Source: Quinella sp. 1Q7 (lineage in GTDB: Bacteria > Bacillota > Negativicutes > Selenomonadales > Selenomonadaceae). Taken from it: DNA of 64,000 nt. Position numbers and translations under genes: made by a program. The DNA lies in contig JADEZP010000001.1 of the NCBI GenBank assembly GCA_015206805.1, positions 219 to 64,218 of the forward strand, in the 5' to 3' direction. The notes beneath the pieces are model-generated. The model was not told the origin of the DNA, did no database searches, and worked only from the letters and a program-made list of their open reading frames with translations. Below are positions 7,268 to 26,859 of the stretch, piece after piece (position 1 is the stretch's first letter; every line of letters begins with the position of its first letter).

Positions 7268-7425
7268 AAAAAATTTTAGTTGGCGGCTGACGGGACGGCG
7301 TGCGAATTCTGCAAACTTCAGGCGTCGTCAGTCGATTTGTCGGCAAAATTTTTTAGTCGGCAACTGACGGGACGGCGGACGAATTCCGCAAACTTCAGGC
7401 GTCGTCAGTCGATTTGTCCGCAGAA
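7268..7425. repeat. tandem duplication, 2 x ~77 bp
   Basis: CTGACGGGACGGCG.GCGAATTC.GCAAACTTCAGGCGTCGTCAGTCGATTTGTC.GCA.AATTTT occurs at 7287 and 7364 (period 77). The second copy contains the last ~30 nt and stop of the M48 peptidase gene. Confidence 0.85.
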
Positions 7426-9185
7426 TTTTTGGCGGCGCGTTCAGCTTCAGCCTTGTGGAGTTTGTCGGCGGCTTTAGGGTCGATTTTTTCCAGATACGTC
7501 AGCGGGACGATGTGCGGATTTTTTTTCGACAGCACGTAGCACTTGCGATAACTTTCGGTCGCGGCGTCGACGTTGCCCTGCTCGTCGAAAATGTCGCCCT
7601 GCAAACGGTAAGCAATGGGATTTTTTTCATCGACGGCAAGTGCGCGATTGATATCCTCCAGCGCAAGGTCGACTTCGCCGCGCATGTGCCGAACGTCCGC
7701 GCGATTCAGGAAGTTGTAAAGATTTTTCGGATCCTGCGCGACGGCGGTATCAACGTCGGCAAGCGCACCGTCATAGTCGCCGCAAATCGCCTTCGCCCGC
7801 CCGCGAATCGCCAAGCACTCGGCAAGGTCGTCTTGATTCGCCGCACGCATCGCCCGTTCAATTTCGACAAGCGCAAGTTCGCCCTGCCCGTGGTCGTTGT
7901 AAATGTCGGCGTTGACGCGCAGTTGAGTAGCCGCCTTAGCTTTGGCGGTGTCGGCGTCGACACGAACTTTAGCCCAACGCTCCTCACGCGCCGCGTCAGC
8001 CTCATGAATCCGTTGACGCGTGCGGGGGCTTTCGTATTTGTAGGCAAGCTCAACCAGCGTCTGAATCTTGTCGCCCAGATTGTACAGCGCGGAAAGTTCG
8101 CGCACCTCGCGGTAGGCAAAATCGTCCGTCAAAAAATCCGTCTGATTGCCGACGCGCCGAAAGTTCCAGCCGTCAATCGTGTCGTGGTCGTGAAAAGCCT
8201 TCGACAGTCCGCCCGCGAAGTAGTAGGCGTTGACGGCGGCACTCGACGGGTCGTCGCCGATGTTGACGCTGAAAAAAATTTCTCGCCCGTCAATGAACAC
8301 GCGGTAAGCGCGGTCAGCCTTGCGCACGGTCACATGTCCGCCGCCGTAGTTCGTCATCATCTCAAGCAGTTTCGCCTCGCGACGGTCAGTTTCGGGGTGG
8401 TCGCTGAAAGTTTCGTCGCCGCTCACGTCGTGAATGTCGAATTCCAAAACGTCCGTCGTCTCGTAGCGCACGTAATAATCGAGCCGATTCATAGCCGCCG
8501 CGCCGCCGCCGGGATTGAAGCCCGCGCTTGTCATAATGTAAAAGCCGCCCTCGTCCGCCGCGTATTCGGCAGGCACGCCGATATTTTTGGCGATTGAGTA
8601 ATCGACCATTGCGGGAAGTTTGCCCCAATCGATGTGCGACGTGCGGCTGTTGTCATCGATGTTGGCGGCAAGAACCATTGCGCCGAGCTGTTGAGCGACT
8701 GCCTGCGCGTAACTTTTGGCGGAATGTTGCTCAATGCCGTGCGTCATTTCATGGGCAAGGACGGCGGCAAGTTGGTTTTCGTCGCAGTGAAGTCCGCGCA
8801 CAAGTCCGCGATTGACGCTGATATAATTCATGGGGTAGCAGGCGGCGTTGAACTTTTCGCTGTCGTTGACGCTCCAAACGAACGGCAGGGAATTCACGCG
8901 CAGTTCATATTGCCCGTCGCGAACGAGCCGCGTCATAACGGAATCGACAACCTCAACGTCGCGCTTGTTGGCGTCAACGCCGTTGTGCTCCATATCTTGC
9001 TTGCGAATCGCCATTTGCGCGTTGACGTTGTTGCCGAGCTTGAGCATTTGCCGCAATGTCGACTGATACGCCGCCAAAACTCCGAGAGCCTCCGCCGCGA
9101 CAGCCCACGCGTCCGCCGCAAAAACTTGCACGGGATTGAGCAGCGTCGCAACCGTCAGCAACATCACGATAAAAAATTTTTTCAT
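7395..9185 (-). CDS. secreted M48-family zinc metallopeptidase with C-terminal TPR repeats
   Basis: Signal peptide MKKFFIVMLLTVATLLNPVQVFA. HEMTH zinc motif (LAHEMTHGIEQH). C-terminal TPR-like repeats. The ORF track begins 4 codons earlier at a TTG; the ATG at 9185 is preferred. Confidence 0.8.
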   Translation of the reverse strand: MKKFFIVMLLTVATLLNPVQVFAADAWAVAAEALGVLAAYQSTLRQMLKLGNNVNAQMAIRKQDMEHNGVDANKRDVEVVDSVMTRLVRDGQYELRVNSLPFVWSVNDSEKFNAACYPMNYISVNRGLVRGLHCDENQLAAVLAHEMTHGIEQHSAKSYAQAVAQQLGAMVLAANIDDNSRTSHIDWGKLPAMVDYSIAKNIGVPAEYAADEGGFYIMTSAGFNPGGGAAAMNRLDYYVRYETTDVLEFDIHDVSGDETFSDHPETDRREAKLLEMMTNYGGGHVTVRKADRAYRVFIDGREIFFSVNIGDDPSSAAVNAYYFAGGLSKAFHDHDTIDGWNFRRVGNQTDFLTDDFAYREVRELSALYNLGDKIQTLVELAYKYESPRTRQRIHEADAAREERWAKVRVDADTAKAKAATQLRVNADIYNDHGQGELALVEIERAMRAANQDDLAECLAIRGRAKAICGDYDGALADVDTAVAQDPKNLYNFLNRADVRHMRGEVDLALEDINRALAVDEKNPIAYRLQGDIFDEQGNVDAATESYRKCYVLSKKNPHIVPLTYLEKIDPKAADKLHKAEAERAAKNSADKSTDDA

Positions 9186-9243
9186 GTCAATCACCAAGCG
9201 AAGTATATCACGAACGCCGCGCCCGACAAAATTTTTCAGCGCA

Positions 9244-9280
9244 CAAAAAAATTCCCCGACCGTCGCAATGACAATCGGGG
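9244..9280 (-). terminator. bidirectional-type intrinsic terminator after fabK
   Basis: A-run, then CCCCGA...TCGGGG hairpin (9254-9280), then T-run. On the minus strand the hairpin is followed by U7. Confidence 0.6.
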
Positions 9281-9298
9281 ATTTTTAAGTTGCGTTTG

Positions 9299-10249
9299 TT
9301 ATGGCTGATAAACCTCCTCCGCTTCCGTGACGAGGCGGCGAATAATTTCTTTGGCGGGCAAAATTTCTTCGATACGCGGCATGAATTCGCCCGTGAAGAC
9401 CAAGCCCGTTTCCAAGTCGCCTTGTTGAGCACGCGTCAGTGCGCGGACGATGCAGAAATTGTGTTTGCACGCTTTCAGGCACGAGTCGCAGGTTTTGGGC
9501 GGGACGTTGCCTTCCATCACGCGCTTTGAAAACGGCGTGCGAACGGCTCTGCCGGGCAAACCGACGGGGCTGTTTATGACGACGACATCTTCGGGCTTCG
9601 ACTTGAGATAATAATTTTTGAGCGAGGGCGCGCCGTTTGATTCGAGACTTGCCGCGAAACGTGAGCCCATTTGCACGCCGTCGGCACCGAGTTTGAGCAC
9701 GTCGACGATGTCTTTGCCCGTGAGCACGCCGCCTGCCGCAATGACCGGAATTTTCACGGCGGCACGAATCGGCGCAATCAGTTCGCGGACGGAAATATCT
9801 GTGCCGAGGTGACCGCCCGCCTCCTTGCCTTCAACGACGACAGCCGCCGCGCCGAGTTTTTCCGAGATCTTCGCCAGCTTAACAGAGGAAACAATCGGGA
9901 CAATCGGCGTGCCGGAAGCTCTGCCCAGCCCGAAAATATCGCGTGAAAACCCCGCGCCCGCAACGATTAAATCGATGCCCGCGTCCATTGCCGTATGAAC
10001 AATCCCCGCGAAATCGCTTGCCGCGACCATGATGTTTATGCCGATTATGCCGTCGGTTAGGGAGCGCGCCAATTTAATTTCGTAGCGCAATTCGTCGTGA
10101 GCCATGCCCGACGCCGCGATAAGTCCGATGCCGCCTTCGTTGGCGACAGCCGCCGCAAGCCGCGCCGTTGACAGGCGAATCGCCATGCCGCCCTGCACGA
10201 TTGGGATTTTTGCTGTTTTCGTTCCTATTGTAAGTTTCGGAAGTTTCAC
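9299..10249 (-). CDS. fabK: enoyl-[acyl-carrier-protein] reductase II (FMN-dependent, NPD family)
   Basis: 316 aa. IVQGGMA and GADGVQMGSRF motifs of the nitronate monooxygenase/FabK fold. Located next to acpP and fabG. Confidence 0.8.
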   Translation of the reverse strand: MKLPKLTIGTKTAKIPIVQGGMAIRLSTARLAAAVANEGGIGLIAASGMAHDELRYEIKLARSLTDGIIGINIMVAASDFAGIVHTAMDAGIDLIVAGAGFSRDIFGLGRASGTPIVPIVSSVKLAKISEKLGAAAVVVEGKEAGGHLGTDISVRELIAPIRAAVKIPVIAAGGVLTGKDIVDVLKLGADGVQMGSRFAASLESNGAPSLKNYYLKSKPEDVVVINSPVGLPGRAVRTPFSKRVMEGNVPPKTCDSCLKACKHNFCIVRALTRAQQGDLETGLVFTGEFMPRIEEILPAKEIIRRLVTEAEEVYQP

Positions 10250-10261
10250 GGATAATCCTCT

Positions 10262-10339
10262 CCAAAAAGGTATTAGGTATCAGGTATCAGGCATCAGATT
10301 TTAGCCCTAATACCTAATCCCTAATACCTAATCCCTGAA
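10262..10339 (-). terminator. imperfect long hairpin plus U-run built from tandem heptamers (acpP attenuator/terminator)
   Basis: The arms are tandem heptamers: GGTATTA GGTATCA GGTATCA GGCATCA versus CCTAATA CCTAATC CCTAATA CCTAATC. On the minus strand GGUAUUAGG pairs with CCUAAUACC, followed by UUUUU. Confidence 0.45.
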
Positions 10340-10576
10340 TCAAGCGTTGGTTTCTCCGTCTATGTACTTAACGACATCTTCCACAGTCTTGATTTTTTCG
10401 GCCTTCTCGTCGGGAATTTCGATGTTGAATTCTTCCTCGAACGCCATGATAAGTTCGACTATGTCCAGAGAGTCTGCACCGAGGTCGTCGACGAAGGTTG
10501 AGCTCATTTGAATTTCGTCCTCTTCGACTCCAAGCTGCTCTTTGACGATTTTTTTAACCTGATCAAACGTTGACAC
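10340..10576 (-). CDS. acpP: acyl carrier protein
   Basis: 78 aa with the [19 protein letters not shown] phosphopantetheine-attachment motif. Confidence 0.95.
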
Positions 10577-10603
10577 TTACAGTCACCTCCTTTCAAAGCC
10601 GCG

Positions 10604-11362
10604 TCACATGACCATGCCGCCGTCAACCGACAGAACTTGACCGGTAATGTACGCCGCCTGATCCGATACCAAGAACGCCACTGCATTGGCAACGTCTTCG
10701 GGAGTGCCCATCCTGCCCGCAGGTATCTCTTGCAACATAACTTCCTTGACCTTTTCGCTTAGCGCGGCAGTCATATCGGTGTTGATAAGTCCGGGCGCGA
10801 CCGCGTTGACCGTGACGCCACGCGAAGCAAGTTCTCTTGCCGCCGTCTTCGTGAAGCCGATAATGCCCGCCTTTGCCGCCGCGTAGTTTGCTTGGCTGAT
10901 GTTGCCTTTGAGCCCGACGACGCTGGACATATTGACGATACGACCGCCGCGTTGTTTCATCATCAGCCGCGTGACGGCTTTGGTGCAGTTGAAGACGCCC
11001 TTCAAGTTTGTGGCGATAACTCTGTCGAAGTCGTCTTCACTCATCTTGAGCAGGAGATTGTCGCGGGTGATGCCGGCGTTGTTAATCAGAATGTCCAATC
11101 GACCCCACGCGTCGACGACCTGCTTGACAAGCGAGTTGACTGTCTCGAAATTCGACACGTCGCCTTGAACGAGCATTGCCGTGCCGCCCGCCGATTCGAT
11201 TTCGTTGCGGACCGATTCGGCTTTGGAACTGTTGCTTGCGAAATTCAACGCGACCTTTGCTCCGTCGAATGCAAGCCGCAGTGCAATGGCTCGACCGATA
11301 CCGCGTGAAGCACCCGTCACGAACGCAACTTTGCCCGCCAAAATTTTTTCCGTCGCACTCAT
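10604..11362 (-). CDS. fabG: 3-oxoacyl-[ACP] reductase
   Basis: SDR with TGASRGIGRAIA, NNAG and YAAAKAG motifs. Start moved to the ATG at 11362 (MSATEKIL) behind a GGGAGG SD; the ORF track extends 28 codons upstream. Confidence 0.9.
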   Translation of the reverse strand: MSATEKILAGKVAFVTGASRGIGRAIALRLAFDGAKVALNFASNSSKAESVRNEIESAGGTAMLVQGDVSNFETVNSLVKQVVDAWGRLDILINNAGITRDNLLLKMSEDDFDRVIATNLKGVFNCTKAVTRLMMKQRGGRIVNMSSVVGLKGNISQANYAAAKAGIIGFTKTAARELASRGVTVNAVAPGLINTDMTAALSEKVKEVMLQEIPAGRMGTPEDVANAVAFLVSDQAAYITGQVLSVDGGMVM

Positions 11363-11513
11363 TACAACCTTTCGCCTCCCGTTTGCAGAATATAACACAA
11401 AGATTTTCGCTTGTCTACAATTTTCGGTTGAGAGCTTGACGCGCAATTAGACTGCGCCCGCAGTATGTGCTATCATTGGCGCATTAATTTTATCTGCGCG
11501 GGAGAAAATTTTT

Positions 11514-12935
11514 ATGAGCATCGTCGACAACATCAAGCGCAAATGCAACGGCTTCGGAATTTCCACGAAAATAACGTTCGCTTACAGTGCGTGCTTCATA
11601 ATACTGTTGCTGATAATCAACGCGGCAATGTGGTTCGGCGTAATGGACGCGCTGTACAGTCCCGCCGAAAAAACTATCCGATTCAGCATGAAACGCGTTG
11701 AGCAAGCCCTTGACGCGCTGGAGACGAATTACGACGGCTACAGCCCGCTTGCCTTTCGCGGCGCACTTGTCGCGGGAGTGGTTTTGCGCGTCGTCGACGA
11801 GAGCGGCGAAATTTTAATCGACACCGACGAAACTTATCCGTCAATCGAAATGTTCAACGCGGCAATTTTGCTCGACCCGCCGATTTTTGCCGACCGCGAA
11901 TTTGAAATTGCACGACTCGGCTCCGCGCTGGTTTATTGCGCCAAAATGAATTACGTGCGCGAAGGACAAAACTTCACGCTGTATTTTTTCCGCACGATAA
12001 CTTCCGAACTGACACTGCTGGACAATTTGGCGAAACTGCTTATCGGGCTTGACGTGCTGGGAATTTTAATCGCGCTCGTCGTCGGACGTTTCGTCAGCCG
12101 AAAAGTTTTGACTCCGATAAAAACCATGAACGAACTTGCCCGTGAAATCGCCTTCGAGAAAATGGGCGGACGAATTCCCCTGCGCACGGCGGACGACGAA
12201 CTTAACGAACTTGCCAAAACGCTCAACGAGATGCTTGACCGACTGCAGGGCGGCATAAAAAAGCAACAGAAATTTGTTTCCGACGCATCGCACGAACTGC
12301 GCACGCCCGCCGCCGTCATCAAAGGCTACATCGAATTCATTGAGAGCTACGGCACGGCGGACGAGGCTTTGCTCAAGGAGAATCTTAAAGTTATCGGCTC
12401 CGAAGCCAAAAATATGCAGGACTTGCTGGAAAATCTTTTGTTCCTGTCGCGCACGGATCAGAATCGTCAGCGGCTCAACAAAAAAATTCTCGACCTTGAC
12501 GACATTGTCGGCGACGTTATGAGCAAAATGCGCACCGTCGTCAAGACGCACAATGTCGAACTCGTCAGCAACCCGCCCGCGAAAATTTTCGGCGACGAAA
12601 CGACGATTCGGCAGATGATTAGAATTTTTCTTGACAACGCCGTCAAATACACGCCCGCAGGCGGCAGTATCAGCGTCGCGTCGAAAATCGTCGGCGGGAA
12701 AATTTTGTTGAGCATTTCGGATTCGGGCATCGGTATCGCGCCGGAAAATCGCCCAAAAATTTTCGACCGCTTTTTCCGAATCGACAGCGAAGATTTGGTC
12801 AGTGAGGCGAACGGCAGCGGATTGGGCTTATCAATCGCGAAATGGATTGCCGACAGCCACGGTATCACAATCGACGTCGACAGCGCGCTCGGCAAGGGCA
12901 CGACCTTCACGCTGAATATCCCGCTGAATTCGTGA
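11514..12935 (+). CDS. sensor histidine kinase (2 TM, HAMP, HisKA, HATPase_c); no adjacent response regulator
   Basis: 473 aa. H-box SDASHELRTP. N/G boxes DNAVKYT, DSGIGI and GSGLGLSI. GGGAG SD. Confidence 0.9.
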   Translation: MSIVDNIKRKCNGFGISTKITFAYSACFIILLLIINAAMWFGVMDALYSPAEKTIRFSMKRVEQALDALETNYDGYSPLAFRGALVAGVVLRVVDESGEILIDTDETYPSIEMFNAAILLDPPIFADREFEIARLGSALVYCAKMNYVREGQNFTLYFFRTITSELTLLDNLAKLLIGLDVLGILIALVVGRFVSRKVLTPIKTMNELAREIAFEKMGGRIPLRTADDELNELAKTLNEMLDRLQGGIKKQQKFVSDASHELRTPAAVIKGYIEFIESYGTADEALLKENLKVIGSEAKNMQDLLENLLFLSRTDQNRQRLNKKILDLDDIVGDVMSKMRTVVKTHNVELVSNPPAKIFGDETTIRQMIRIFLDNAVKYTPAGGSISVASKIVGGKILLSISDSGIGIAPENRPKIFDRFFRIDSEDLVSEANGSGLGLSIAKWIADSHGITIDVDSALGKGTTFTLNIPLNS

Positions 12936-12950
12936 AAGGAGACGTTTTAT

Positions 12951-13567
12951 TTGCTTGAAATATTTTTGTCGCCGCGCTGAAAAGTTCACCATTGCTCGCG
13001 CCCGCGTGGAAAATTTTTGATAAGTCGTTGACGCGCACATCGGAGGCGGCTTACTCGACGATTGACGCCGCAGAATTTTTCTGTAAGCGATAATGTCGGG
13101 GACGCGGGCTTGACGAGCGGTTTGAGCGGCGTCGATATGACAAGCGACAATATCAAGGATTTGCAGAACAGCATTGCAAAACTTTTGTCGGGCGTGGAGT
13201 CGGCGTTTGTCACGTCGCTCGTCGGAATTTTTTTCGGGCTCGTTTACAGCGTCGCGCACCACAAATTGATTGTCGCGCTCCACGATAAAATTGCTCAACT
13301 GACTGACGCGCTCGACGAAAAATTTCCGCGCCGTTCCGCCGAAGATTGGCTGTCGAAAAATTTTTCCGAGGCTCAAACGCAATCGGCGGAATTTTTTCGG
13401 ACAGGGTTGGTGCACAAATGGATCGATTTTCAGCCGCGCTCGACAGATTTTCCGATACCATTGCTCAAAAGTTGTCGGACGCGCAAAAAATTTTCGACAC
13501 CACAATTGCGACCATGAAAGCCGCCGCTGACGCCAACGCCGCGCAAGTTACACGTATCGTCGAAAAT
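12951..13567 (+). pseudogene. MotA/ExbB-like (ZorA-like) remnant, multiply frame-disrupted and far too short
   Basis: AAGGAG SD directly after the kinase stop. Only the last MotA/ExbB-type TM helix (GVESAFVTSLVGIFFGLVYSV) and a short coiled-coil (AQMDRFSAALDRFSDTIAQKL...) remain. The reading frame changes 3>2>3>2 at T5/T6 runs (12963-67, 13076-80, 13392-97). Confidence 0.5.
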
Positions 13568-14266
13568 ATGAACGCCGCCGCCTGTAATAACGCCGTGCCC
13601 GATACGTTCACTGTCAGTATCAGCGACTTGATGTCGGGCTTATTGGCGATTTTTATTCTGGTGCTGTCGTATTTTATTTTGAACTTCACGCAGGCGACCG
13701 CGCAACTCACGCAAAACGACATCACGCGGGCGGAGCTGTTGCACTTCATGCAACGCGAACTTGAGCGCGAAGGAATCAAAGTCACCGTCGACGACCGCCA
13801 CGGCATATTGCGCATTGCGGAGGACGTACTGTTCGACGTGGGGCTTGCCGACGTGAAGCCGCAAGGTCAAATCGTCATACAAAAATTATCCGCAGTGCTT
13901 GCCGTCGCGCTGGAGGCTGAACAATTCAAAGGGCGCGTCGAAACGATTTTCATTGAAGGGCACACGGACAACGTCCCGATAAGCAACGGCGTGTTCCCGT
14001 CGAATTGGGAGCTGTCGGCGAAGCGGGCGATAAACACTTGGCTGACGATGAGCGGCGCGAATCCGCAACTTACGGCACTGCGCAACGATAAGGACGAAAT
14101 GATTTTTTCGGTGAGCGGTTACGCGGACACTCGACCAATCGCGGCGAACACGTCGGAGGCAGGACGCGGCGACAATCGGCGAATCGACATCCGATTTTCA
14201 ATGGCACCGCCGACCGAAGCGAATATGAGCATTGTTAAATTTGTTCGCAAGGAGTTGGCACAATGA
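13568..14266 (+). CDS. MotB/OmpA-family stator-like protein (ZorB-like)
   Basis: TM helix with conserved Asp (SISDLMSGLLAIFILVL). OmpA-like peptidoglycan-binding domain (FDVGLADVKPQG, IEGHTDNVPI, SNWELSAKRA, GYADTRPIA, NRRIDIRF). The ORF is open back to 13346, so the true start is uncertain. Confidence 0.7.
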   Translation: MNAAACNNAVPDTFTVSISDLMSGLLAIFILVLSYFILNFTQATAQLTQNDITRAELLHFMQRELEREGIKVTVDDRHGILRIAEDVLFDVGLADVKPQGQIVIQKLSAVLAVALEAEQFKGRVETIFIEGHTDNVPISNGVFPSNWELSAKRAINTWLTMSGANPQLTALRNDKDEMIFSVSGYADTRPIAANTSEAGRGDNRRIDIRFSMAPPTEANMSIVKFVRKELAQ

Positions 14267-15422
14267 GCCTGCGTGAATCGATTGACGACATGCGCGGCGT
14301 TGCGAAACGTTTGGAGGCGGCGACGTTTGCTCCCGACATGAACGCGCTGAAAATTTTCGTCGACAAGCTCGGCACCTTCGGCAAGCCCGTCGAAGTGAAT
14401 CCGGAGGACTTGAAAATTTTGGCGGCGAAATTTCTGCGCGGCGAACGGAATTTTTCGCGGCGTGAGCTGAAAAATTTGCCGTACATAATTTACGACGACG
14501 CGATTAATTTTGACGGCGCGAAAGAAATTCTGCGGCTTATGGATTTTACGTCGGCAAGTCATTTGCGGCGCGTGGTGAGCGTTTACCTTACGAATTACGA
14601 CGACTCGAACAAAACCGAACTTTTGCGGCGGAGTCTGAACGTTCTGCGCGGCGTCGACAATGTGCGGTTGCGGAAAATTTTTTCGGCGCGTGAAGAAATT
14701 TTTGGCGACAATCGCTTTGCGAACATGACGCGACTTTTCGCGCGGACAATGAGCGTCAACGGCGGCGCATTCGGAGAACTCGGCTTGGGCGACTACTTCA
14801 AGACCGCGAAGTTCATTCAAGCCGCGCTGACGAATTTTTTCCGCGCCGACGTGCCGCTTGAGGTGCAGTTCAAAATTCCGGACGAACTCGACGCCGAATA
14901 CGACACCTACCGAAATATTTTCGCCGCCGTTGCCGACTCGCTGATTCTGACCGTCGCCCGCGCAGGTGTCGGCAAGCGGAAATGTCTGACAATTTTTTAT
15001 AATCGGCTGGGCGATCCGCGTTTCGGCAACGGACGTTTTGCGTGGAATGAAGTTTCGGCGCGGGCTCGCGAAATTTTTCAGCGTTGGCTTGCCGAAGACG
15101 ACTTGAGGATTTTTTTTGAAATTATCCGCGGCTCGGCAGTCAGGCGCGGAAAATTGCCCGTCGCCTTGAAGACAAGCGCACTCACGGCGCGTTGCTCGGC
15201 AAATTGGACGCGGACAAAAGCGGCTTCCTTTTCCAAATCGGCGGCTTTATTTTCGCCGAATGGAGCCACGACGGCGCGTTGAGAGTTTATCCCGCGCGGC
15301 GCGTGCAAAATTGGAGCAATTTTTACAAGTCGGACATGATGGGCGTGCCCGTCGATTATCGGCAAGTTCATATCGGCGCGTGGCAAGCTAAAGTTCGCGC
15401 GTGGATTCAACGGAATTGTTGA
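14263..15422 (+). pseudogene. EH_Signature-like (ZorC-like) protein, frameshifted near 15121-15150
   Basis: ATGA overlap with the preceding gene. LGDPRFG..W..VSARAREIFQRWLAEDDLRIFFEII in frame 1 continues in frame 3 as ...FLFQIGGFIFAEWSHDGALRVY...WQAKVRAWI. Family assignment is from memory of ZorC/EH-signature proteins. Confidence 0.5.
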
Positions 15423-15585
15423 GGATGCTTTAATCGTGACGATGTGGCTTGAGCGTGCGGACGGATTTTTTTTCCGCGCAGTGAAATTTCGGCAGAAGGG
15501 ACGTTGCATCCTGCCGGTATGTCCCGCAACGTTGCGACAACCGTAATTCGTATCGTTCCCAAATGTTTTGATTGAGGCAACCGCA

Positions 15586-17928
15586 ATGAAAATTAAAGTC
15601 CCCGATTCAATGCTGAACGTCTGGCTCGCGGCAATGGCGGCGGGCGTTCTTTTTATGGAGCATTTCCAAAGGACGCCGCAATTTTTAATCGGAGCTTGTG
15701 CGGCGGCGACGGCTGTCGGATTGTTGGCGACGTGGCGGCGGAAAAATTTCACGGCGTGGATTGTCGTGCCGATAATTTTTTTCGCGCTCGGAGGCTGGAG
15801 ATTTTTCGCGGTCGACAATCTGCCGCAAGACGACGTGTCGAAATTCGCGGGACAACAAATTTTCGTTACGGGCACAATCCGCGACGAGCCGCAGTCGAAA
15901 ATTTTGCCGAACGGTATGCGGCAGATAAGATTCGTCGTCGACGCACAGGCCGCCAAACTCAACGGCGCACTGCAAAAAATTTCGGGTGGATTAATCGTCA
16001 CGTTCTACCCGAAGTCCGACGAACTGCCGACGGCGCGAATCGGAGACAAAATTTCCGTGAGCGGCAACCTGCGACTAATCAGCAATTACAAAAATCCGGG
16101 GCAGATTGATTCGGTCACGCGCATGAAGGCTGACGGCATTACGGCGCGACTTTCGGCGGGCAAACAAGGCGTCGCGATTGAGGCTGTCGACGGCGGGCTG
16201 TGGACGAAATTTTTACGGCTCGTCGCGACGATTCGTCAACACTACCGCGCGGCAATGGCGCAGGTTATGTCGACTCAAGACGCGGCGGCAATTTTCGCAA
16301 TGCTGTTCGGCGGCTATGCGGGGCTCAATCCCGAATTGGTCGAGGACTTCGCGACGACGGGCATAATCCACATCTTATCGGTCAGCGGCTCGCACATGAG
16401 CATGTTATCGTTTGTAGTCGCCGCAGTGTGCAAATTGGGACGATTTCCGCGCTGTGTGACGTTCGCGGTCGGAGTGTTCGTTATCGGCACGTATGCATTG
16501 TTGAGCGGACTTTTGCCGCAGGTCATGCGTTCGGCGTCAATGGGTGCGCTGGTATTTTTCGCAAAAACACTCGACGCGGAGGCTGAAGGCGCACGGCTCC
16601 TGACGTTGACGGCGTTGGCAATGCTGTTCAATCAACCGTTGTTGATTTTCGACGTGAGCTTCCAATTAAGCTTTACGTCGACGGCGGGGCTGATGTATTT
16701 GTCGGAGGATTTGCGGCGGACAATGGAGCGTTTGCCGAAATTTTTCGCAGAAGCGGCGACAATGACGATTGCCGCGCAGGTCGCAAGCTTGCCGATTGTC
16801 GTATGGTATTTCAACCGAATTTCGTTGAGTGCCGTCCTTGCAAATGCGTTCGTAATGCCGCTGTTGGAAATTGTGATTGTCGGCGGACTTTTGGGCGGAA
16901 TAATCGCGGTCGTGCCGATTGTCGGGAAAATTTTTTTCGCGTGCCTTGCAATGACATTCGGACTTGGCGCGGAGCTGAATCGGGTTTTCGCACGACTGCC
17001 GCTAAGTTCGGTGCAGGTGCCGACGTTGGGATTCGCGGCGGGATTTTTTTATTACGTCGCGCTGATTTTGCGTCGCCCGATAATTTTGCCGCTGATAATC
17101 CTGTTGCCGTTATTGAGCGGTTTACGTCCGAGCGGCGGGCTTGAAGTGAGTTTCGTCGACGTCGGGCAGGGCGATTGCGCAGTCGTCGTCACGCCGCACG
17201 GTAAGTGCATGATTTTCGACACGGGCGGCGTCCGCGAACGGATGTTCGACGTCGGCGGGCGAGTGGTCGTCCCGTATCTCAAGCACGAAAATATTCGCGC
17301 GGTCGACAAAATTTTTCTGACGCACGTGCACGAAGATCACGCGGGCGGCGCAGGTTCCGTGATAAAAAATTTTCCCGTCGGCGAGGTCGTCACGGGCAAC
17401 GAGGGTCGCGCGGAATATGCGGCGGTCTTCGGCATTGCGCAGGAACATTTGCCGAATATGCGGGCAGGTCACGCGGGCGAGGTCATCGACGTTGACGGCG
17501 TGCAGGTCGAAATTTTATTCGCGCCGACAGTCGGCAGCGGCAACGAAATTTCCAACGTCTACCGAATCCGATATGGCGACGTGACTTTTCTGATAACGGG
17601 CGATTTGGTCACGGACATGGAGTCGCAGATTTTGGCGGCGGGCGTCGACGTTAAAAGCACCGTGCTCAAGGTCGGTCACCACGGCAGCGCGACGAGCTCA
17701 AGCGAAAAATTTCTGCGCGCCGTCAATCCAAGTTGCGCCGTGATTTGCGTCGGCTACGGAAATACTTTCGGTCACCCCCGCGCCGAAGTTTTGGAGCGGC
17801 TTGAAAATTTGCCGACGAAAATTTTCCGCACAGATCGCGACGGCTTAATCACCTTCCGCACCGACGGCAAAACCTTGCGAGTCGAAACCTTCGTGCAGGC
17901 AGGAAAATCGGGTAACGCGACAAATTAA
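15586..17928 (+). CDS. comEC: DNA internalization competence protein ComEC/Rec2
   Basis: Polytopic competence domain followed by a metallo-beta-lactamase domain (FLTHVHEDHAGG, KVGHHGS). ATG 15586 behind a GAGG SD. Confidence 0.9.
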   Translation: MKIKVPDSMLNVWLAAMAAGVLFMEHFQRTPQFLIGACAAATAVGLLATWRRKNFTAWIVVPIIFFALGGWRFFAVDNLPQDDVSKFAGQQIFVTGTIRDEPQSKILPNGMRQIRFVVDAQAAKLNGALQKISGGLIVTFYPKSDELPTARIGDKISVSGNLRLISNYKNPGQIDSVTRMKADGITARLSAGKQGVAIEAVDGGLWTKFLRLVATIRQHYRAAMAQVMSTQDAAAIFAMLFGGYAGLNPELVEDFATTGIIHILSVSGSHMSMLSFVVAAVCKLGRFPRCVTFAVGVFVIGTYALLSGLLPQVMRSASMGALVFFAKTLDAEAEGARLLTLTALAMLFNQPLLIFDVSFQLSFTSTAGLMYLSEDLRRTMERLPKFFAEAATMTIAAQVASLPIVVWYFNRISLSAVLANAFVMPLLEIVIVGGLLGGIIAVVPIVGKIFFACLAMTFGLGAELNRVFARLPLSSVQVPTLGFAAGFFYYVALILRRPIILPLIILLPLLSGLRPSGGLEVSFVDVGQGDCAVVVTPHGKCMIFDTGGVRERMFDVGGRVVVPYLKHENIRAVDKIFLTHVHEDHAGGAGSVIKNFPVGEVVTGNEGRAEYAAVFGIAQEHLPNMRAGHAGEVIDVDGVQVEILFAPTVGSGNEISNVYRIRYGDVTFLITGDLVTDMESQILAAGVDVKSTVLKVGHHGSATSSSEKFLRAVNPSCAVICVGYGNTFGHPRAEVLERLENLPTKIFRTDRDGLITFRTDGKTLRVETFVQAGKSGNATN

Positions 17929-20421: not shown

Positions 20422-21573
20422 ATGGTCAACAGAATCATCTTGAACGAAACGTCGTATTTCGGACCCGGTGCGATTAAAGAAATTCCCGCCGAAATTCGCG
20501 GTCGCACCTGCAAGAAAGTCATGCTCGTCACCGACAAAGCCCTGCTCAAGTTCAAAGTCGCGACGAAAGTCACGGAGCTTTTGGCGGCGGAAGGCATCGA
20601 CTTCGAAATTTACGACAACGTCAAAGCCAATCCGACAATCGAAAACGTTCAAAGCGGAGTCGAATTCTGCAAACGTTGCGGCGCGGACATCATCGTTGCA
20701 GTCGGAGGCGGCTCGGCAATCGACACGAGCAAGGCAATCGCAATCATTATGACAAACCCCGAATTTGCCGACGTGCGCAGTCTTGAAGGCGTCGCGCCGA
20801 CAAAAAACAAATGCTTGCCGATTATCGCCGTCTCCACGACATCGGGAACTGCCGCCGAAGTCACGATTAACTACGTCATAACCGACGTTGAGCGCAACCG
20901 CAAATTCGTCTGCGTCGACCCGAAAGATATTCCCGTTGTCGCGATTGTCGATTCGGAAATGTGCGCCTCCATGCCGCCGAAACTTTGCGCCGCCACGGGT
21001 ATGGACGCGCTCGTTCACGCGATTGAAGGTTACATCACCAAAGGCGCGTGGGAGCTTACGGATATGGTGCACCTCAAGGCGATTGAAATTATTTCCAAAA
21101 ATCTGCGCCGTTCCGTCAAAGGCGACCCCGTCGGGCGTGAGCAAATGGCACTCGGTCAATATATCGCGGGCATGGGCTTTTCAAACGTCGGGCTCGGTAT
21201 CGATCACTCAATGGCGCACCCGTTGAGCGCGGTTTACGACATTCCGCACGGCACGGCTTGCGCGATTTTGCTTGCACCCGTGCTGAAGTTCAACGCTCCC
21301 GCAACCGCTGAACGTTACCGCGAAATTGCGCGGGCAATGGGCGTCGCGGGCGTCGACGATATGACGCAGGACGAATACCGCGCCGCCGCCATTGACGCCG
21401 TCGCCAAACTTAGCGCGGACGTCGGCATTCCTACGAAACTTTCCGAACTCGGCGTCAAGGCGGAGGACATCGACTTTTTGGCGGAGTCGGCTCTTGCGGA
21501 CGCCTGCACGCCCGGCAATCCCCGCGACGTGACTAAGGAACAAATCGCCGAAATTTATCGCTCAATCTTCTAA
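20422..21573 (+). CDS. fucO: iron-containing alcohol dehydrogenase, lactaldehyde reductase-like
   Basis: 383 aa from MVNRIILNETSYFG. Colinear with E. coli FucO over its whole length, with long stretches identical (NPEFADVRSLEG, TAAEVTINYVITD, RKFVCVDP, HAIEGYIT.GAW.LTD, MALGQY.AGMGFSNVGLG). GGGAGG SD. Confidence 0.85.
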   Translation: MVNRIILNETSYFGPGAIKEIPAEIRGRTCKKVMLVTDKALLKFKVATKVTELLAAEGIDFEIYDNVKANPTIENVQSGVEFCKRCGADIIVAVGGGSAIDTSKAIAIIMTNPEFADVRSLEGVAPTKNKCLPIIAVSTTSGTAAEVTINYVITDVERNRKFVCVDPKDIPVVAIVDSEMCASMPPKLCAATGMDALVHAIEGYITKGAWELTDMVHLKAIEIISKNLRRSVKGDPVGREQMALGQYIAGMGFSNVGLGIDHSMAHPLSAVYDIPHGTACAILLAPVLKFNAPATAERYREIARAMGVAGVDDMTQDEYRAAAIDAVAKLSADVGIPTKLSELGVKAEDIDFLAESALADACTPGNPRDVTKEQIAEIYRSIF

Positions 21574-23676
21574 CCGACACATCACGCAATAAAAAATCCC
21601 GTCGCTCGATTGAACGGCGGGAATTTTTTTACTTGAAGCGGATTTGCAGGTTGAGGTCGATGAAGAATTCTGTGCCCCCCCCCAGTCAACTTCGGGGTAA
21701 ACAGTGGCGAACGTGTGTTTACGAGTGTCGGGCGTCTCCAAGCGCGTTTCGTTGAGCAGGTAAGTCTCAAAGTCGTCGTGATTCTGCAACGGGTACAGCA
21801 CGATGTCGGCATTGCGCTTGACGACGATACAACCGCCGCTCGCCTCGATTCGACCGTTCCAAACTTCGGCGGGACGCAAACCCAATGCGACGTTGCGCAG
21901 AAATTTTTTGATGTTGACGCGGTAAAAATTCTTGACGCCGACTTTGAGCGGGTCGACATCTTCAAGTCGCGTCGCAAGTTCGGAGCAACCGCTGATTCGT
22001 TCGACGTAAAACAGCTTGACCATTTCGCCGAGGATTCTGCCCATTTTCGAATCAATCAGGCGCAGATTGTTCGCGAAGGTCGAATTTTTTACCGCGACGA
22101 ACTCCAGCCGCTCAATCCGGCTCAAGCGGTCGATAATCTTCGTGCGCGTGTCGATGGCGTTGATTTTTTCGGCAAGCGCGGAATTCACGCCGACGGCTCG
22201 AAATCTGAAATTCGTCGCGCCCGAAGCGTTGAACAGCGTCGGCTTGCCGCCAACGTAAGATTTAATCGAGTAACCGACGGGCTTATCGGAATCGGTCGGC
22301 GCGTCGCGAATCGTCAGCTCAATGTCGGACTTCCTGTCGGAGGGCGATTTAATCGTCTCCAAGCCGAGCACGTCCAAAATATCCGTCGCGCCGTGAATTT
22401 CAAACGCATGACCTTTGCCGCGCCGTATGCCGTCCAAAATCGTATCCGCCATTGCCGCAAGGTCGTCGGCGGAAATTTTTTTTATGCGGTCGCCGTCCCG
22501 ATACAGCGTGACGAAATTTTTCAGCCGCCGCAGTTCCAACGCGGAATGATTTTTGTAAGCGCAACGGGCTTGCATGACGGGCAGTCGCCGAATTTTCCCG
22601 TCAATCACGTTCGTAATCGCGCCGTCGGCAATCAGCCGCAACAGCACGTAAAATTCGCTCCACTCGCCCTTGTTGTACGCCATTGGTTCAAGCACGCTCC
22701 TTATTTCGGCGGCAATAGCCTCGACGACGTTAATCGACACGGTGTTGCCGAATTGCCTGTACAAATGCGTGTCGCTCAAGCTCAAGCGGAAGTCGTCGGG
22801 GAAGCCCTGAAGTCGCGCCCACTCTCGCGGCGTCAGCTTGCGGATATTTTCGTCGTTAATCGCGCCGTGAATTTTCGTCGTCGGAATTTTTGAATGAGCT
22901 CGCGCATCGACAATCAAGTTTCGTTCGCGCCCCATGCCGCCGCAGACGAGAGCACTTGCCACGCCGTCAAGCGATTTAATTTCGTAGCCGAAGCCGTTGC
23001 CCGCCGCCTCGTGCCGTTGACGGTGTCGGCGCAGTGTCGCAAGATAAACGTCGCTCAAATAATATTTCGCGGGTATCGGCGCGGCGTCGATTATGTCGGC
23101 GATTGTGCTGACTTCGCGATTCGGCGCGGGGAACGTAAATTTTTCGGGCGCGATGTCTCGGCGGAAGCAGACGATATAAATCCGTTCGCGATTTTGCGGC
23201 AAGCCGAAGTCCCGACTGTTCAAGACCGCGTGAAAAATTTTGTAGCCGATTTGCTCAAAAGCCGCGCATATGATTTTGAACGTGCGCCCTCCGTCGTGAT
23301 TGACCAGCCCTTTGACGTTCTCGCAGAAAATTATTTTCGGCTTGTGATAATCGCAAATTCTCACGACGTCCAAAAACAATGTGCCGCGACAGGTGCCGTG
23401 ATAATCGTCGTCGAAGCCGCCGCGTTTGCCCGCGATTGAAAACGCTTGGCACGGGAAGCCCGCCAAACATATATCGAACGGCGGAATGTCCTCGGCGGCA
23501 ATTTGCGTGATGTCGCCTTCAATCGTGATGTCGGCAGGAAAATTTTCGGCGTAAGTCGCGCGGGCGTGAGCGTCAATCTCGCTGACGAAAACCGTTTGCG
23601 CGTCGTCAAAGGCACGCTCGAAGCCCAGCCGTATGCCGCCGATCCCCGCGAACAAGTCAATCATTTTGCAGGTCAA
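21562..23676 (-). CDS. single ORF encoding a DNA (cytosine-5) methyltransferase (aa 1-~331) and an HpaII-family restriction endonuclease (from Met332 at 22683); REase C-terminus is frameshifted at a G9 tract
   Basis: m5C MTase motifs DLFAGIGG, GFPCQAFS, ENVKGL, QNRERIY and FGNTVS. Then MAYNKGEWSEFYVLLRLIADG, typical of the R.HpaII N-terminus, with an internal AAGGAG 13 nt before Met332. After the G9 tract the +1 frame reads GTEFFIDLNLQIRFK-stop (stop at 21629-21631), which looks like the native end. Confidence 0.75.
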   Translation of the reverse strand: MTCKMIDLFAGIGGIRLGFERAFDDAQTVFVSEIDAHARATYAENFPADITIEGDITQIAAEDIPPFDICLAGFPCQAFSIAGKRGGFDDDYHGTCRGTLFLDVVRICDYHKPKIIFCENVKGLVNHDGGRTFKIICAAFEQIGYKIFHAVLNSRDFGLPQNRERIYIVCFRRDIAPEKFTFPAPNREVSTIADIIDAAPIPAKYYLSDVYLATLRRHRQRHEAAGNGFGYEIKSLDGVASALVCGGMGRERNLIVDARAHSKIPTTKIHGAINDENIRKLTPREWARLQGFPDDFRLSLSDTHLYRQFGNTVSINVVEAIAAEIRSVLEPMAYNKGEWSEFYVLLRLIADGAITNVIDGKIRRLPVMQARCAYKNHSALELRRLKNFVTLYRDGDRIKKISADDLAAMADTILDGIRRGKGHAFEIHGATDILDVLGLETIKSPSDRKSDIELTIRDAPTDSDKPVGYSIKSYVGGKPTLFNASGATNFRFRAVGVNSALAEKINAIDTRTKIIDRLSRIERLEFVAVKNSTFANNLRLIDSKMGRILGEMVKLFYVERISGCSELATRLEDVDPLKVGVKNFYRVNIKKFLRNVALGLRPAEVWNGRIEASGGCIVVKRNADIVLYPLQNHDDFETYLLNETRLETPDTRKHTFATVYPEVDWGGAQNSSSTSTCKSASSKKIPAVQSSDGIFYCVMCRLED
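21576..21630. terminator. conserved intergenic element copy 1: ACATCACGCAATAAAAAATCCC plus hairpin plus T-run (bidirectional terminator)
   Basis: GACACATCACGCAATAAAAAATCCC, then hairpin TCCCGTCGCTCGATTGAACGGCGGGA, then T7. Lies between convergent fucO and the REase gene. Confidence 0.6.
21675..21683 (-). repeat. homopolymeric G9 tract (C9 on plus strand) inside the REase 3' end
   Basis: Counted directly: tgtg-ccccccccc-agtc. G10 or G7 would restore the native-looking C-terminus. G9 gives a 38-aa nonsense extension running through the terminator into the fucO end. Confidence 0.9.
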
Positions 23677-24331: not shown

Positions 24332-24363
24332 CAATGAAATTTTTGTGCAGAGGAGCGCATTCA

Positions 24364-26859
24364 TTGCAACTGCTTTACAACCTCGCGGCGATAATCGTCG
24401 TGATTCTAATCATCCCCGTGTTTATGATTCGGTCGATACGCGAACGCGGCTTCGTGGAGCGAATCAAACAAAGTTTCGGATTCTTCCCGAAAGGCGCACT
24501 CGACCCCGTGGCGAAAAAAAATTGCATATGGGTGCACGCGGCGTCGGTCGGGGAAATTGTCGCGACGAGCCCGCTGATTAAAGAATTCCGCCGCGAATTC
24601 CCAAAGTCGCCAATCCTCGTATCGGTCGTGACAACTTCGGGCTACGAAATGGCGAATCGAATCATCAAGGACGCCGACAGCATAATCTATTTCCCGCTGG
24701 ATTTGCCGTTCGTATCGGCGCACGTCTTCCGAAAAATTTTCCCGCGCGTCTTCCTGAACGTCGAAACGGAATTGTGGCCGAACTTCCTTAAGGCGGCGCG
24801 TGAAAATCGCGTGCCCGTGATGATGGTCAACGGTCGCATATCCGAAAAAAGCGTCAAGCGGTACAAATACATGTTCTCGATTTTGAGCGACATGATCGGC
24901 ACCGTCCAACTGTTCGCAATGGCGTCGTCGGTCGACGCGGGCTACGTCAAGCAACTCGGCGCGCCGGAAGACTTGGTTATCGTCACGGGCAACACGAAGT
25001 TTGACCAGACGTATACGGACGTGACGGCGGCTCAACGCGCAAAAATTTTGTCGGACATGGGATTGACTGACGCGACGGAAATTTTTTTGGCGGGCAGTAC
25101 ACATCGCGGCGAAGAAAATTTCGTGCTCAAGGCGTTCAAGGCGATTCGCGAAAATCATCCGAAGGCGCGACTTGTCATTGCCCCGCGTGAGCTGCTCCGC
25201 ACGCGTGAAGTCGTCGCGCTGTGCAAGGCGGCGGGATTCACCGTCGGCACGCGCACCGAATTGCAGAAACGTCCGCCCGCAAATGAGGACATCATAATTC
25301 TGGACACAATCGGCGAACTCGGACAGGTTTACAGTATCGGCGACGTGATTTATGTCGGCGGAAGTCTCGTTTCTCACGGCGGACACAACATCCTTGAGCC
25401 CGCCGCTCACGGCAAGGCGATTGTCGTCGGGCACCACATGGAGAACTTTAAAGACCTGCACGCGCTGTTCAAAAATCGCAACGCCTGCGTGACCGTAAAC
25501 GACGCCGACGAACTTGCCGCGCAGGTTAAAAAACTTTTCGACGAGCCCGCCGAACGTCAACGCCTTGAGCAGGAAACGATTGCCATTGTCCACGAAAATC
25601 GCGGCGCGTCCAGAAAATCCGCCGTGCTCCTGCGACAAATGCTGACCGAATACGAGGCGCGCGAAAATGCCCGCCACTTGCACACGACCGAAAAAATCGA
25701 AAACGTTCAAACGTATTTCCTGCGGCTCGTTCACGATGAGGACGTGCACGGTCCGATAACGCATTTGGTGATTTTCGTGCTGTATATTTTTTCGCTGGTG
25801 TACAAAGGTCTCGTCAACCTGCGGCTGCTCGGCTACGATTTGGGCTTTTCGGGCAAGGAACGACTGAATTGCTTCGTGATAAGTCTCGGCAACATAACGG
25901 TCGGCGGGACGGGCAAAACTCCCACGGCGCAACGGCTTGCCAAGGAAATTCGCGACATGGGCTATCGCGTCGTGATTCTCAATCGCGGTTATCGTGCGAA
26001 ATTCTACGGCGAAGTCGGCATTGTCTCGGACGGCAAGTCGCTCAAAATGGACGCGGCGGAGGCTGGCGACGAAGCTTACATGCTTGCCAAGCACCTGCCG
26101 AACGTCCCCGTGCTTATCGGTGCGCGACGTGCCGTCAGCGGACAATACGCCATTGAAAATTTCGGCGCGGAGGTTGTAATTCTCGACGACGGCTATCAGC
26201 ATTGGCAAGTGATTCGCGATTTGGACATTCTGCTGATTGACGCGGTGTCAGTCTTCGGCAACGGGCACTTGCTCCCACGCGGCACGCTCCGTGAATCGAT
26301 GTCGCATATCAGCCGCGCAGATGTTTGCCTTATGACGAAGGTCGATCAAGCCGGCGAAGGCTCCCGCGAACTTATCCGCGAAACAATCCGCAAATACAAT
26401 TCCGCCGCGCAGATTGTCGAAAGCATTCATAAGCCGCGCTGCCTGATTCCGCTTGCCGAATGGTCGACGAATTTGTCGGGCGACGGCGTCAGTGTCGACA
26501 CAATCAGCGGTCGGCGCGTTATGGCAGTTTCGGCTATCGGCAACCCCGCGTCGTTCGAACGAACGTTGCGCGATTTGGGCGCGGAAATTATTTCCAGTCT
26601 GCGCTATCCCGACCACCACGACTACACGATTATGGAAATGGAAGACATTTTGCGGCAGGCTGATTCGTTCGCGGCGGAAATGATTATCGTCACGGAAAAA
26701 GACGCCGTCAAAATTCCCGACGAAGTTGCCCGCGAAAATTGGCGCATCCCGATTTTCGTTATCAGCGTCGAAGTCACGTTCCAAGTCGGCGCGGCGGAAT
26801 TCGAGGAACTTTTACGGCGTCGTCTTGCCGAAAAAATCGGCGGGCAAGCGGCAACTTGA
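24364..26859 (+). CDS. bifunctional Kdo transferase (WaaA/KdtA) fused to tetraacyldisaccharide 4'-kinase (LpxK)
   Basis: The N-terminal ~420 aa are WaaA-like (WVHAASVGE, glycosyltransferase fold). The C-terminal ~370 aa are LpxK-like (VISLGNITVGGTGKTP P-loop, ILDDGYQH). TTG 24364 behind an AGAGGAG SD matches WaaA N-termini (MQLLYN..). The ORF track starts 10 codons earlier. Confidence 0.85.
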   Translation: MQLLYNLAAIIVVILIIPVFMIRSIRERGFVERIKQSFGFFPKGALDPVAKKNCIWVHAASVGEIVATSPLIKEFRREFPKSPILVSVVTTSGYEMANRIIKDADSIIYFPLDLPFVSAHVFRKIFPRVFLNVETELWPNFLKAARENRVPVMMVNGRISEKSVKRYKYMFSILSDMIGTVQLFAMASSVDAGYVKQLGAPEDLVIVTGNTKFDQTYTDVTAAQRAKILSDMGLTDATEIFLAGSTHRGEENFVLKAFKAIRENHPKARLVIAPRELLRTREVVALCKAAGFTVGTRTELQKRPPANEDIIILDTIGELGQVYSIGDVIYVGGSLVSHGGHNILEPAAHGKAIVVGHHMENFKDLHALFKNRNACVTVNDADELAAQVKKLFDEPAERQRLEQETIAIVHENRGASRKSAVLLRQMLTEYEARENARHLHTTEKIENVQTYFLRLVHDEDVHGPITHLVIFVLYIFSLVYKGLVNLRLLGYDLGFSGKERLNCFVISLGNITVGGTGKTPTAQRLAKEIRDMGYRVVILNRGYRAKFYGEVGIVSDGKSLKMDAAEAGDEAYMLAKHLPNVPVLIGARRAVSGQYAIENFGAEVVILDDGYQHWQVIRDLDILLIDAVSVFGNGHLLPRGTLRESMSHISRADVCLMTKVDQAGEGSRELIRETIRKYNSAAQIVESIHKPRCLIPLAEWSTNLSGDGVSVDTISGRRVMAVSAIGNPASFERTLRDLGAEIISSLRYPDHHDYTIMEMEDILRQADSFAAEMIIVTEKDAVKIPDEVARENWRIPIFVISVEVTFQVGAAEFEELLRRRLAEKIGGQAAT

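Follow-up and report, generated by a model that had tools for sequence, protein, structure and literature searches.

The question raised by this stretch of Quinella sp. 1Q7 DNA (hereafter the window, 64,000 nucleotides (nt) in full) is whether the broken, Zorya-like genes that lie between a histidine-kinase gene and comEC are the remains of an antiphage Zorya system or a small system that still works. The original prediction, made from the sequence alone, had left both readings standing: a Zorya system in decay, or a reduced module of a stator and an EH-signature protein with a different, possibly kinase-linked, output. Our analysis makes it very probable that positions 12936-15507 are a non-functional relic of a type I Zorya system (zorABCD) caught in decay. 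This reading is carried by a relative, 91-93% identical to the window, that has intact ZorABCD at the same site, and by nested deletions that are extended in sister contigs.

Three-frame translation of 12900-15600 placed the end of the kinase open reading frame (ORF) at 12935. It is followed by open pieces in frame 2 (12959-13090) and frame 0 (13032-13514, with one hydrophobic helix), a long frame-2 ORF that runs to 14266, a frame-1 ORF (14263-15282) and a frame-0 piece (15120-15422). Identified with PADLOC and Pfam profiles, these pieces comprise part of ZorA, almost all of ZorB and a ZorC/EH_Signature protein divided between two frames (Table 1), which bears out the earlier description of a decayed Zorya-like locus. 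The AAGGAG motif that opens the region directly follows the kinase stop codon (12933-12935), not three nt behind it as had been stated. The ZorA fragment at 13032-13514 matches PADLOC ZorA1 (E = 2e-13) only over profile positions 152-247 of 699. Matches to the Zorya profiles, OmpA and EH_Signature were thus obtained as foreseen, but the one to Pfam MotA_ExbB, at 18 bits, fell below the Pfam cut-off. Altogether 220 of the 671 zorA codons are kept, spread over three frames, and not the single intact ORF, with a MotA/ExbB-like domain and a long tail, by which a functional type I Zorya encodes ZorA.

The frame-2 ORF ending at 14266 matches PADLOC ZorB1 (E = 2.3e-71, 238 bits, profile positions 12-237 of 243) and Pfam OmpA (E = 7.6e-10), and it retains the Asp ahead of the transmembrane (TM) helix (SISDLMSGLL), in line with its first description as a MotB/OmpA-like gene with a TM aspartate; ZorB is thus present, with the caveat that its first ten codons and native start have been deleted. 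The ORF is open upstream into the zorA tail remnant and was recorded as P0001, of 282 amino acids (aa), with a start that falls by arithmetic at ATG 13418. The coupling to the EH_Signature gene was also read correctly, as the zorB stop and the zorC start overlap in an ATGA at 14263-14266. The EH_Signature/ZorC1 matches are divided between frame 1 (profile positions 16-280) and frame 0 (309-423 of 423; EH_Signature E = 8e-9, ZorC1 E = 3e-14), with frame 1 holding to 15131 and frame 0 from 15132, within the interval 15121-15150 in which a break had been suspected. The EH motif is therefore out of frame with the 5' part of the gene, and no intact EH_Signature ZorC, as found in functional Zorya, is encoded. 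ZorD is an SNF2 helicase with an Mrr-like nuclease. Its gene had been taken to be absent, with comEC following at once. comEC does follow, but zorD is absent only in part, as its first ~59 nt survive at 15435-15493 with 96.7% identity to an intact relative (L001), and a second, 24-nt zorD piece lies at 15484-15507. The remaining ~3 kb of the gene has been deleted, and no ZorD is encoded at the locus, 64 kb of the genome being visible.

Table 1. Zorya remnants and flanking genes in the window (TM, transmembrane; RBS, ribosome-binding site; L001 and L003, relatives described in the text)
Feature	Positions	Strand	Basis
Histidine kinase, HAMP + HisKA + HATPase_c, 473 aa	11514-12935	+	Pfam
zorA RBS AAGGAG (12936-12941), start TTG 12951, codons 1-5 in frame 0	12936-12965	+	Alignment to L001, translation
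zorA relic, L001 ZorA residues 48-89, frame 2	12966-13088	+	Alignment to L001
zorA relic, residues 110-209, frame 0; last TM helix VESAFVTSLVGIFFGLVYSV and start of tail	13103-13382	+	PADLOC ZorA1, alignment
zorA coiled-coil tail remnants, frame 2, ~70 of ~460 codons (~15%)	13383-13591	+	Alignment
zorB codons 11-234 and stop; native start and codons 1-10 gone	13592-14266	+	PADLOC ZorB1, Pfam OmpA, alignment
zorC codons 1-289, frame 1	14263-15131	+	Pfam EH_Signature (E = 7e-13), PADLOC ZorC1
zorC codons about 322-420, frame 0; EH motif region FAEWSHDGALRVY	15132-15422	+	EH_Signature, ZorC1
zorD 5' remnant	15435-15507	+	Alignment to L001; same junction in L003
comEC, DUF4131 + Competence + Lactamase_B; likely start ATG 15586	15568-17928	+	Pfam, start compared with L008

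Rumen and gut metagenomes abound in ZorB homologues, nearly all of them 234 aa long. Contigs encoding the closest ones, from rumen Selenomonadaceae/Quinella metagenomes, were retrieved, and the relatives L001, L002, L003, L008 and L009 were compared with the window by blastn and MAFFT alignment. In L001 and L002, ZorB is 94% identical to that of the window and the DNA is 91-93% identical across the kinase gene, zorB and zorC. Their gene order is acpP, fabG, the same 473-aa kinase, ZorA (671 aa), ZorB (234 aa) and ZorC (420 aa; 426 aa in L002), and the next ORF of L001, of at least 910 aa, is ZorD1 (E = 2e-266). The syntenic comparison thus supplied the full-length ZorA and ZorD that had been looked for in relatives, and because the window locus is orthologous to an intact ZorABCD at this chromosomal position, it is type I Zorya by descent.

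Against L001, the window lacks 127 bp after 12965, a net 68 bp at 13088-13102 and 274 bp after 13382, all in zorA, a further in-frame loss of about 393 bp from the zorA tail (aligned as 120 + 117 + 156 bp), and 97 bp of zorC after 15131. The zorA start frame runs for nine codons and stops at 12978, the first TM helix (about residues 9-36 of L001 ZorA) is lost, and the 68-bp net deletion has removed half of the second hydrophobic segment; past the 97-bp junction, the 5' frame of zorC reaches a stop at 15280-15282. Because the losses of 127, 68, 274 and 97 bp are not multiples of three, they shift the frame at or near the four places noted originally, and in the multiple alignment every frame change in the window maps to a deletion junction. 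The places had therefore been given about correctly (12965, 13088-13102, 13382 and 15131), but their cause, put down to runs of five or six T, had not. An in-frame deletion of 546 bp (182 codons) after 13591 has in addition removed the end of the zorA tail together with zorB codons 1-10, and this explains why the tail remnant runs into zorB without a stop, a feature that had already been remarked on.

If the genes were intact in the organism, the same picture could arise from homopolymer errors or chimeric metagenome assembly, and such an artefact would accord with the T5-T8 runs that adjoin the frame changes and with the metagenome-type source (P0001 is on a 68-kb contig, and the relatives are rumen metagenome-assembled genomes (MAGs)). 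However, the lesions are deletions of 68-546 bp and not 1-bp indels, the remaining long genes of the window are unbroken (473-1284 aa), and the junctions are common to the L008 and L009 contigs, which were obtained from different samples with different assemblers. The interval 12700-15800 was also compared with Logan contigs of public runs. X1, an independent gut metagenome run, contains 85% of the window's words at about 25x assembler word depth; its pieces cross 12965, 13382-13591 and 15131 without a gap, and across 13088-13102 its coverage is about as deep, without a reported joint or indel. The L008 form, with skips of 111 and 82 bp and an extra 546 bp, recurs in X2 and in a metatranscriptome of that same sample, X3, and X4, a sheep gut metagenome, has the intact locus, in which zorD and the segments missing from the window are present. 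With these matches across the junctions, an artefact becomes extremely improbable. Homopolymer sequencing error was rejected on the deletion junctions and the X1 support, and phase variation or programmed frameshifting on the T runs beside the junctions, which do not differ in length between the window, L008 and L009, and on the lack of any indel in X1. The lesions are consequently not slips or read errors that resequencing could repair, as had been implied: they are deletions, and X1 reproduces their junctions.

What such lesions mean for function can be judged from the type I Zorya of Escherichia coli (EcZorI), in which deletion of any single zor gene abolishes defence, as do all truncations of the ZorA tail, removal of the whole tail prevents motor assembly, and the ZorB D26N mutant is inactive (Hu et al., Nature 2024, PMC11946911). 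The window locus shares with EcZorI the gene order and the families (ZorA1, ZorB1 and ZorC1 in the window, ZorD1 in L001), and in its ZorB the TM-proximal Asp and the OmpA-type peptidoglycan-binding domain are preserved, as is the EH motif region in its ZorC. It differs in that zorA is reduced to a third of its codons, zorC is split, zorD amounts to ~59 nt and zorB lacks its first ten codons. On the E. coli mutagenesis, any one of the lesions in zorA, zorC and zorD would abolish defence. Because zorD is gone, zorA is without its first TM helix and keeps ~15% of its tail, and zorC is split, we infer that the locus would provide no Zorya defence. It is type I Zorya by descent, lacks three of the four components of a functional system in working form, and is an ordinary pseudogenised member of the group; its undamaged version is the Zorya found between the same flanks at the same site in L001, L002, L016, L023, L028 and L057. 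The TM region of ZorA and ZorB are also distant homologues of the MotAB, ExbBD and TolQR stators. In this respect, OmpA matched clearly and MotA_ExbB weakly, below its cut-off, compared with 238 bits for ZorB1, and the synteny with an EH-signature gene and the descent from ZorABCD place the locus with Zorya and not with motility or Ton/Tol systems.

The second reading of the original prediction was that a short ZorA, ZorB and an EH-signature protein form a working module without ZorD, which signals via, or is controlled by, the orphan kinase. Its attractions are that the RBS of zorA directly follows the kinase stop, that a promoter and terminator scan from the kinase to comEC stayed at background level with no notable site, that arrangements without zorD recur (L003, L052 and L005-7), and that dN/dS (the ratio of non-synonymous to synonymous substitution rates) is low in zorB. 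Nevertheless, the start frame of zorA ends almost at once and the remaining pieces lie in three frames with stops; the first TM helix and half of the second are deleted; the EH motif of zorC is out of frame with its 5' part; sister lineages continue to lose different parts; and the tail truncations and single-gene deletions of E. coli abolish defence (PMC11946911). The kinase also argues against such a module. The same kinase precedes intact ZorABCD in L001, L002, L016, L023, L028 and L057, and it occurs without Zorya, beside unrelated housekeeping genes, in most of about 28 related genomes. A working reduced module is thus largely refuted, and we give it hardly any credence.

The kinase orthologues, 70-80% identical, were found in a scan of species-representative genomes, among Selenomonadaceae/Selenomonadales/Quinella MAGs from ruminants, and Zorya proteins and ComEC were searched for at their loci by tblastn. 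Zorya genes lie downstream of the kinase in only 4 of the 29 orthologous loci L010-L038 (L013, L016, L023 and L028), and the family is also represented in L005-7 (beside an ABC transporter gene), L053 and L054-56, where no such kinase accompanies it; kinase and Zorya therefore do not co-occur across genomes as a kinase-coupled module would require. At three of the 29 loci (L015, L025 and L026), comEC follows the kinase directly, and at one more after a gap of 650 bp. The spacing from the kinase stop to the comEC start at these empty sites is 0-13 nt (L015, about 9416-9424; L025, about 9419-9432; L026, about 9413-9419, with an ATGA overlap), and L016, L023, L028 and L057 have the order kinase-ZorABCD-comEC. 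Because most of the ~28 related genomes have the kinase without Zorya and three have it abutting comEC, the kinase is not part of the Zorya system. It is a conserved resident gene, with a dN/dS of 0.18 against L001, and an orphan by position: in agreement with the earlier remark that no response regulator is near, tblastn with PhoB and CheY sequences as queries, a weak test, found no receiver domain in the window.

In this Quinella-like clade of rumen Selenomonadaceae, the site of Zorya is, by gene order, between the resident histidine-kinase gene and comEC. The spacing of 0-13 nt at the empty sites suggests that these two genes form an operon, with the Zorya cassette inserted in it in other strains. 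Across species the site is polymorphic: ZorABCD is present, the site is empty, or the system has decayed independently. The remnant is probably still transcribed, because it lies between two genes that are adjacent in insert-free genomes; the lack of a notable promoter- or terminator-like site from the kinase to comEC and the low-depth coverage of the L008-type relic by contigs from RNA runs would both fit passive read-through. Whether the region behind the kinase is a defence hot spot in general was also considered and rejected, as the other loci that extend past the kinase carry housekeeping genes there (for example, FBPase, MnmA, penicillin-binding proteins and LeuRS). The kinase-less Zorya loci include one of a separate kind. 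L054 encodes, at 7375-14588, an intact ZorABCD of 755, 234, 439 and 974 aa, as do L055 and L056, with a MobA/MobL relaxase, a DnaB-like helicase, a PDDEXK protein and a Fic protein as neighbours, on contigs of ~16 kb that look like circular permutations of one another; this suggests a small mobilisable element that carries Zorya in rumen bacteria.

The course of the decay can be followed in the relatives. L008 and L009, rumen or gut metagenome contigs that are 96-97% identical to the window (ZorB, 96%), contain a 228-aa tail ORF, ZorB and zorC fragments, and then comEC. The deletions of 127, 68, 274, ~393 and 97 bp and the loss of zorD are common to the window and both contigs; the 546-bp deletion is found in the window only, and deletions of 111 and 82 bp in zorC are found in L008 and L009 and not in the window. 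L003 and L052 also have no zorD before comEC, while their zorB and zorC are intact, as is the 3' part of zorA that they hold (359 and 264 codons, respectively). The zorD junction of L003 is that of the window, at 98.8% identity, and that of L052 is similar, so that the window, L008, L009, L003 and L052 have the same or very similar junctions; L003 itself is a mosaic of L001-like zorABC and the window-like zorD junction. Because the zorD-less relatives keep an intact zorC and an intact held part of zorA, the effector gene would have been lost first. The simplest and likely order is that zorD was lost, that zorA and zorC may then have been worn away by one deletion after another, each of 68-546 bp and several of which fell between short direct repeats, and that lineage-specific deletions would have come last, in the window on the one hand and in L008/L009 on the other. 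These comparisons suggest, in more general terms, that the nuclease effector is the first part to go and that the sensor is eroded afterwards.

In L008, the segment that corresponds to the 546-bp deletion is bordered by the 7-bp direct repeat GCCGCGC, as would be expected of a loss by slippage or microhomology-mediated deletion, and some of the other junctions are at GAAATTT/GAATTTT-like motifs. As a separate observation, the octamer AAAATTTT occurs 47 times in the window, compared with 4.4 +/- 2.1 times in dinucleotide-preserving shuffles, and TTTTAAAA occurs once. Of the 47 copies, 42 lie in the first 44 kb (1-44 kb), for example at 13010, 13357, 13487, 14350, 14413 and 14674, and several Zorya deletion junctions are at A/T-tract motifs similar to it. 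DNA bending, an uptake signal and codon-pair bias are candidate explanations for the excess.

Independent decay is seen at two other loci. In L013 (9479-11731), at the kinase-comEC site, zorB codon 89 is joined to about codon 730 of zorD, and the Zorya locus of L005-7 (L005, 5164-8544), which is in another context, combines a frameshifted, short-tailed zorA with intact zorB and zorC and lacks zorD. Further searches for relatives of the relic were negative within their scope. A first scan of genome contigs with the read-through ZorC as the query found no relative, a ZorB scan of metagenome contigs found nothing closer than 82% and mostly complete ZorABCD, and an exact-pattern search of metagenome contigs for the 274-bp deletion junction found no match, so that it added no relic alleles to the test of selection.

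This test compared the window with L008, both of them relics, by Nei-Gojobori (NG86) counts. The zorA remnants have a dN/dS of 0.71 (P = 0.4 against neutrality), which is near neutrality. For zorB, in contrast, 16 synonymous and 10 non-synonymous differences give a dN/dS of 0.18 (P = 4e-5 against neutrality). Several points weigh against a system that is simply dead: the zorB value equals those of comEC (0.17) and the kinase (0.18), which is unexpected for a gene long dead; the zorC remnants are intermediate (0.35); and the genome outside the visible 64 kb may contain a second, intact Zorya or a zorD. The counts are small, and there are signs of recombination. The 26 zorB differences are concentrated in the last 65 codons, and when substitutions are polarised onto branches the majority of sites disagree with the expected tree, as recombination would cause. 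The low dN/dS of zorB is likely to result from recombination between relic and intact alleles, and the zorB and zorC values weaken the account of decay only a little.

It is also conceivable that Zorya is dead while zorB has been kept by selection for another role, the window encoding a chimeric 282-aa ORF of the tail remnant and ZorB residues 11-234. One possibility would be a peptidoglycan-anchored membrane protein, and another that ZorB partners a ZorA or MotA paralogue whose gene lies elsewhere. In addition to the contrast in dN/dS between zorB, which is at the level of the housekeeping controls, and the zorA remnants, the 546-bp deletion is in frame and left the ORF open, zorB is intact in four other decayed or zorD-less types (L008/L009, L003, L052 and L005-7), and there are RNA-run contigs over the L008-type relic. 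On the other hand, the contrast rests on just 26 differences, and by Fisher's test zorB differs from the zorA remnants with P = 0.036 and from the zorA and zorC remnants together with P = 0.09. The clustering of the differences, the conflicts with the tree and the mosaic L003 indicate that recombination with intact alleles could import a signature of selection. Moreover, zorB is the shortest of the genes and thus the smallest target for deletion, the window has lost its start, and L013 has lost everything after codon 89. We know of no function for a ZorB dimer without the ZorA pentamer. Selective retention of zorB consequently has a slim chance of being correct; if true, a ZorB-type peptidoglycan-binding protein would have a role independent of Zorya, or would pair with a ZorA/MotA paralogue elsewhere.

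The relic of type I Zorya is thus preferred, and the appropriate annotation of the locus is a cluster of type I Zorya pseudogenes, not a new minimal or kinase-coupled variant. Although this is mostly a negative result, the related loci together form a natural deletion series at one site in rumen Selenomonadaceae, with intact, zorD-less, relic and empty states, and the site can serve as a marker for the turnover of defence systems and for recombination in an uncultured, probably naturally competent population.

The remainder of the window contains other features of note. No Rfam family reached its gathering score anywhere in the 64 kb. From 42083 to 64000 (+), and past the end of the window, a frame of at least 7306 codons with a GC content of about 0.60 remains open; its nested direct repeats recur every ~1.5 kb and ~7.3 kb, all at spacings that are multiples of three, and the frame looks like the gene for a giant protein of repetitive sequence, perhaps an adhesin or surface protein. 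A 704-aa ORF at 21562-23676 (-) combines a C-5 cytosine DNA methylase domain (E = 3e-90) with an HpaII restriction endonuclease domain (E = 8e-82), and its product appears to be a fused HpaII-type restriction-modification protein. Finally, an 841-aa ORF at 24334-26859 (+) carries Kdo transferase (Glycos_transf_N) and LpxK domains, which fits a diderm host among the Negativicutes.

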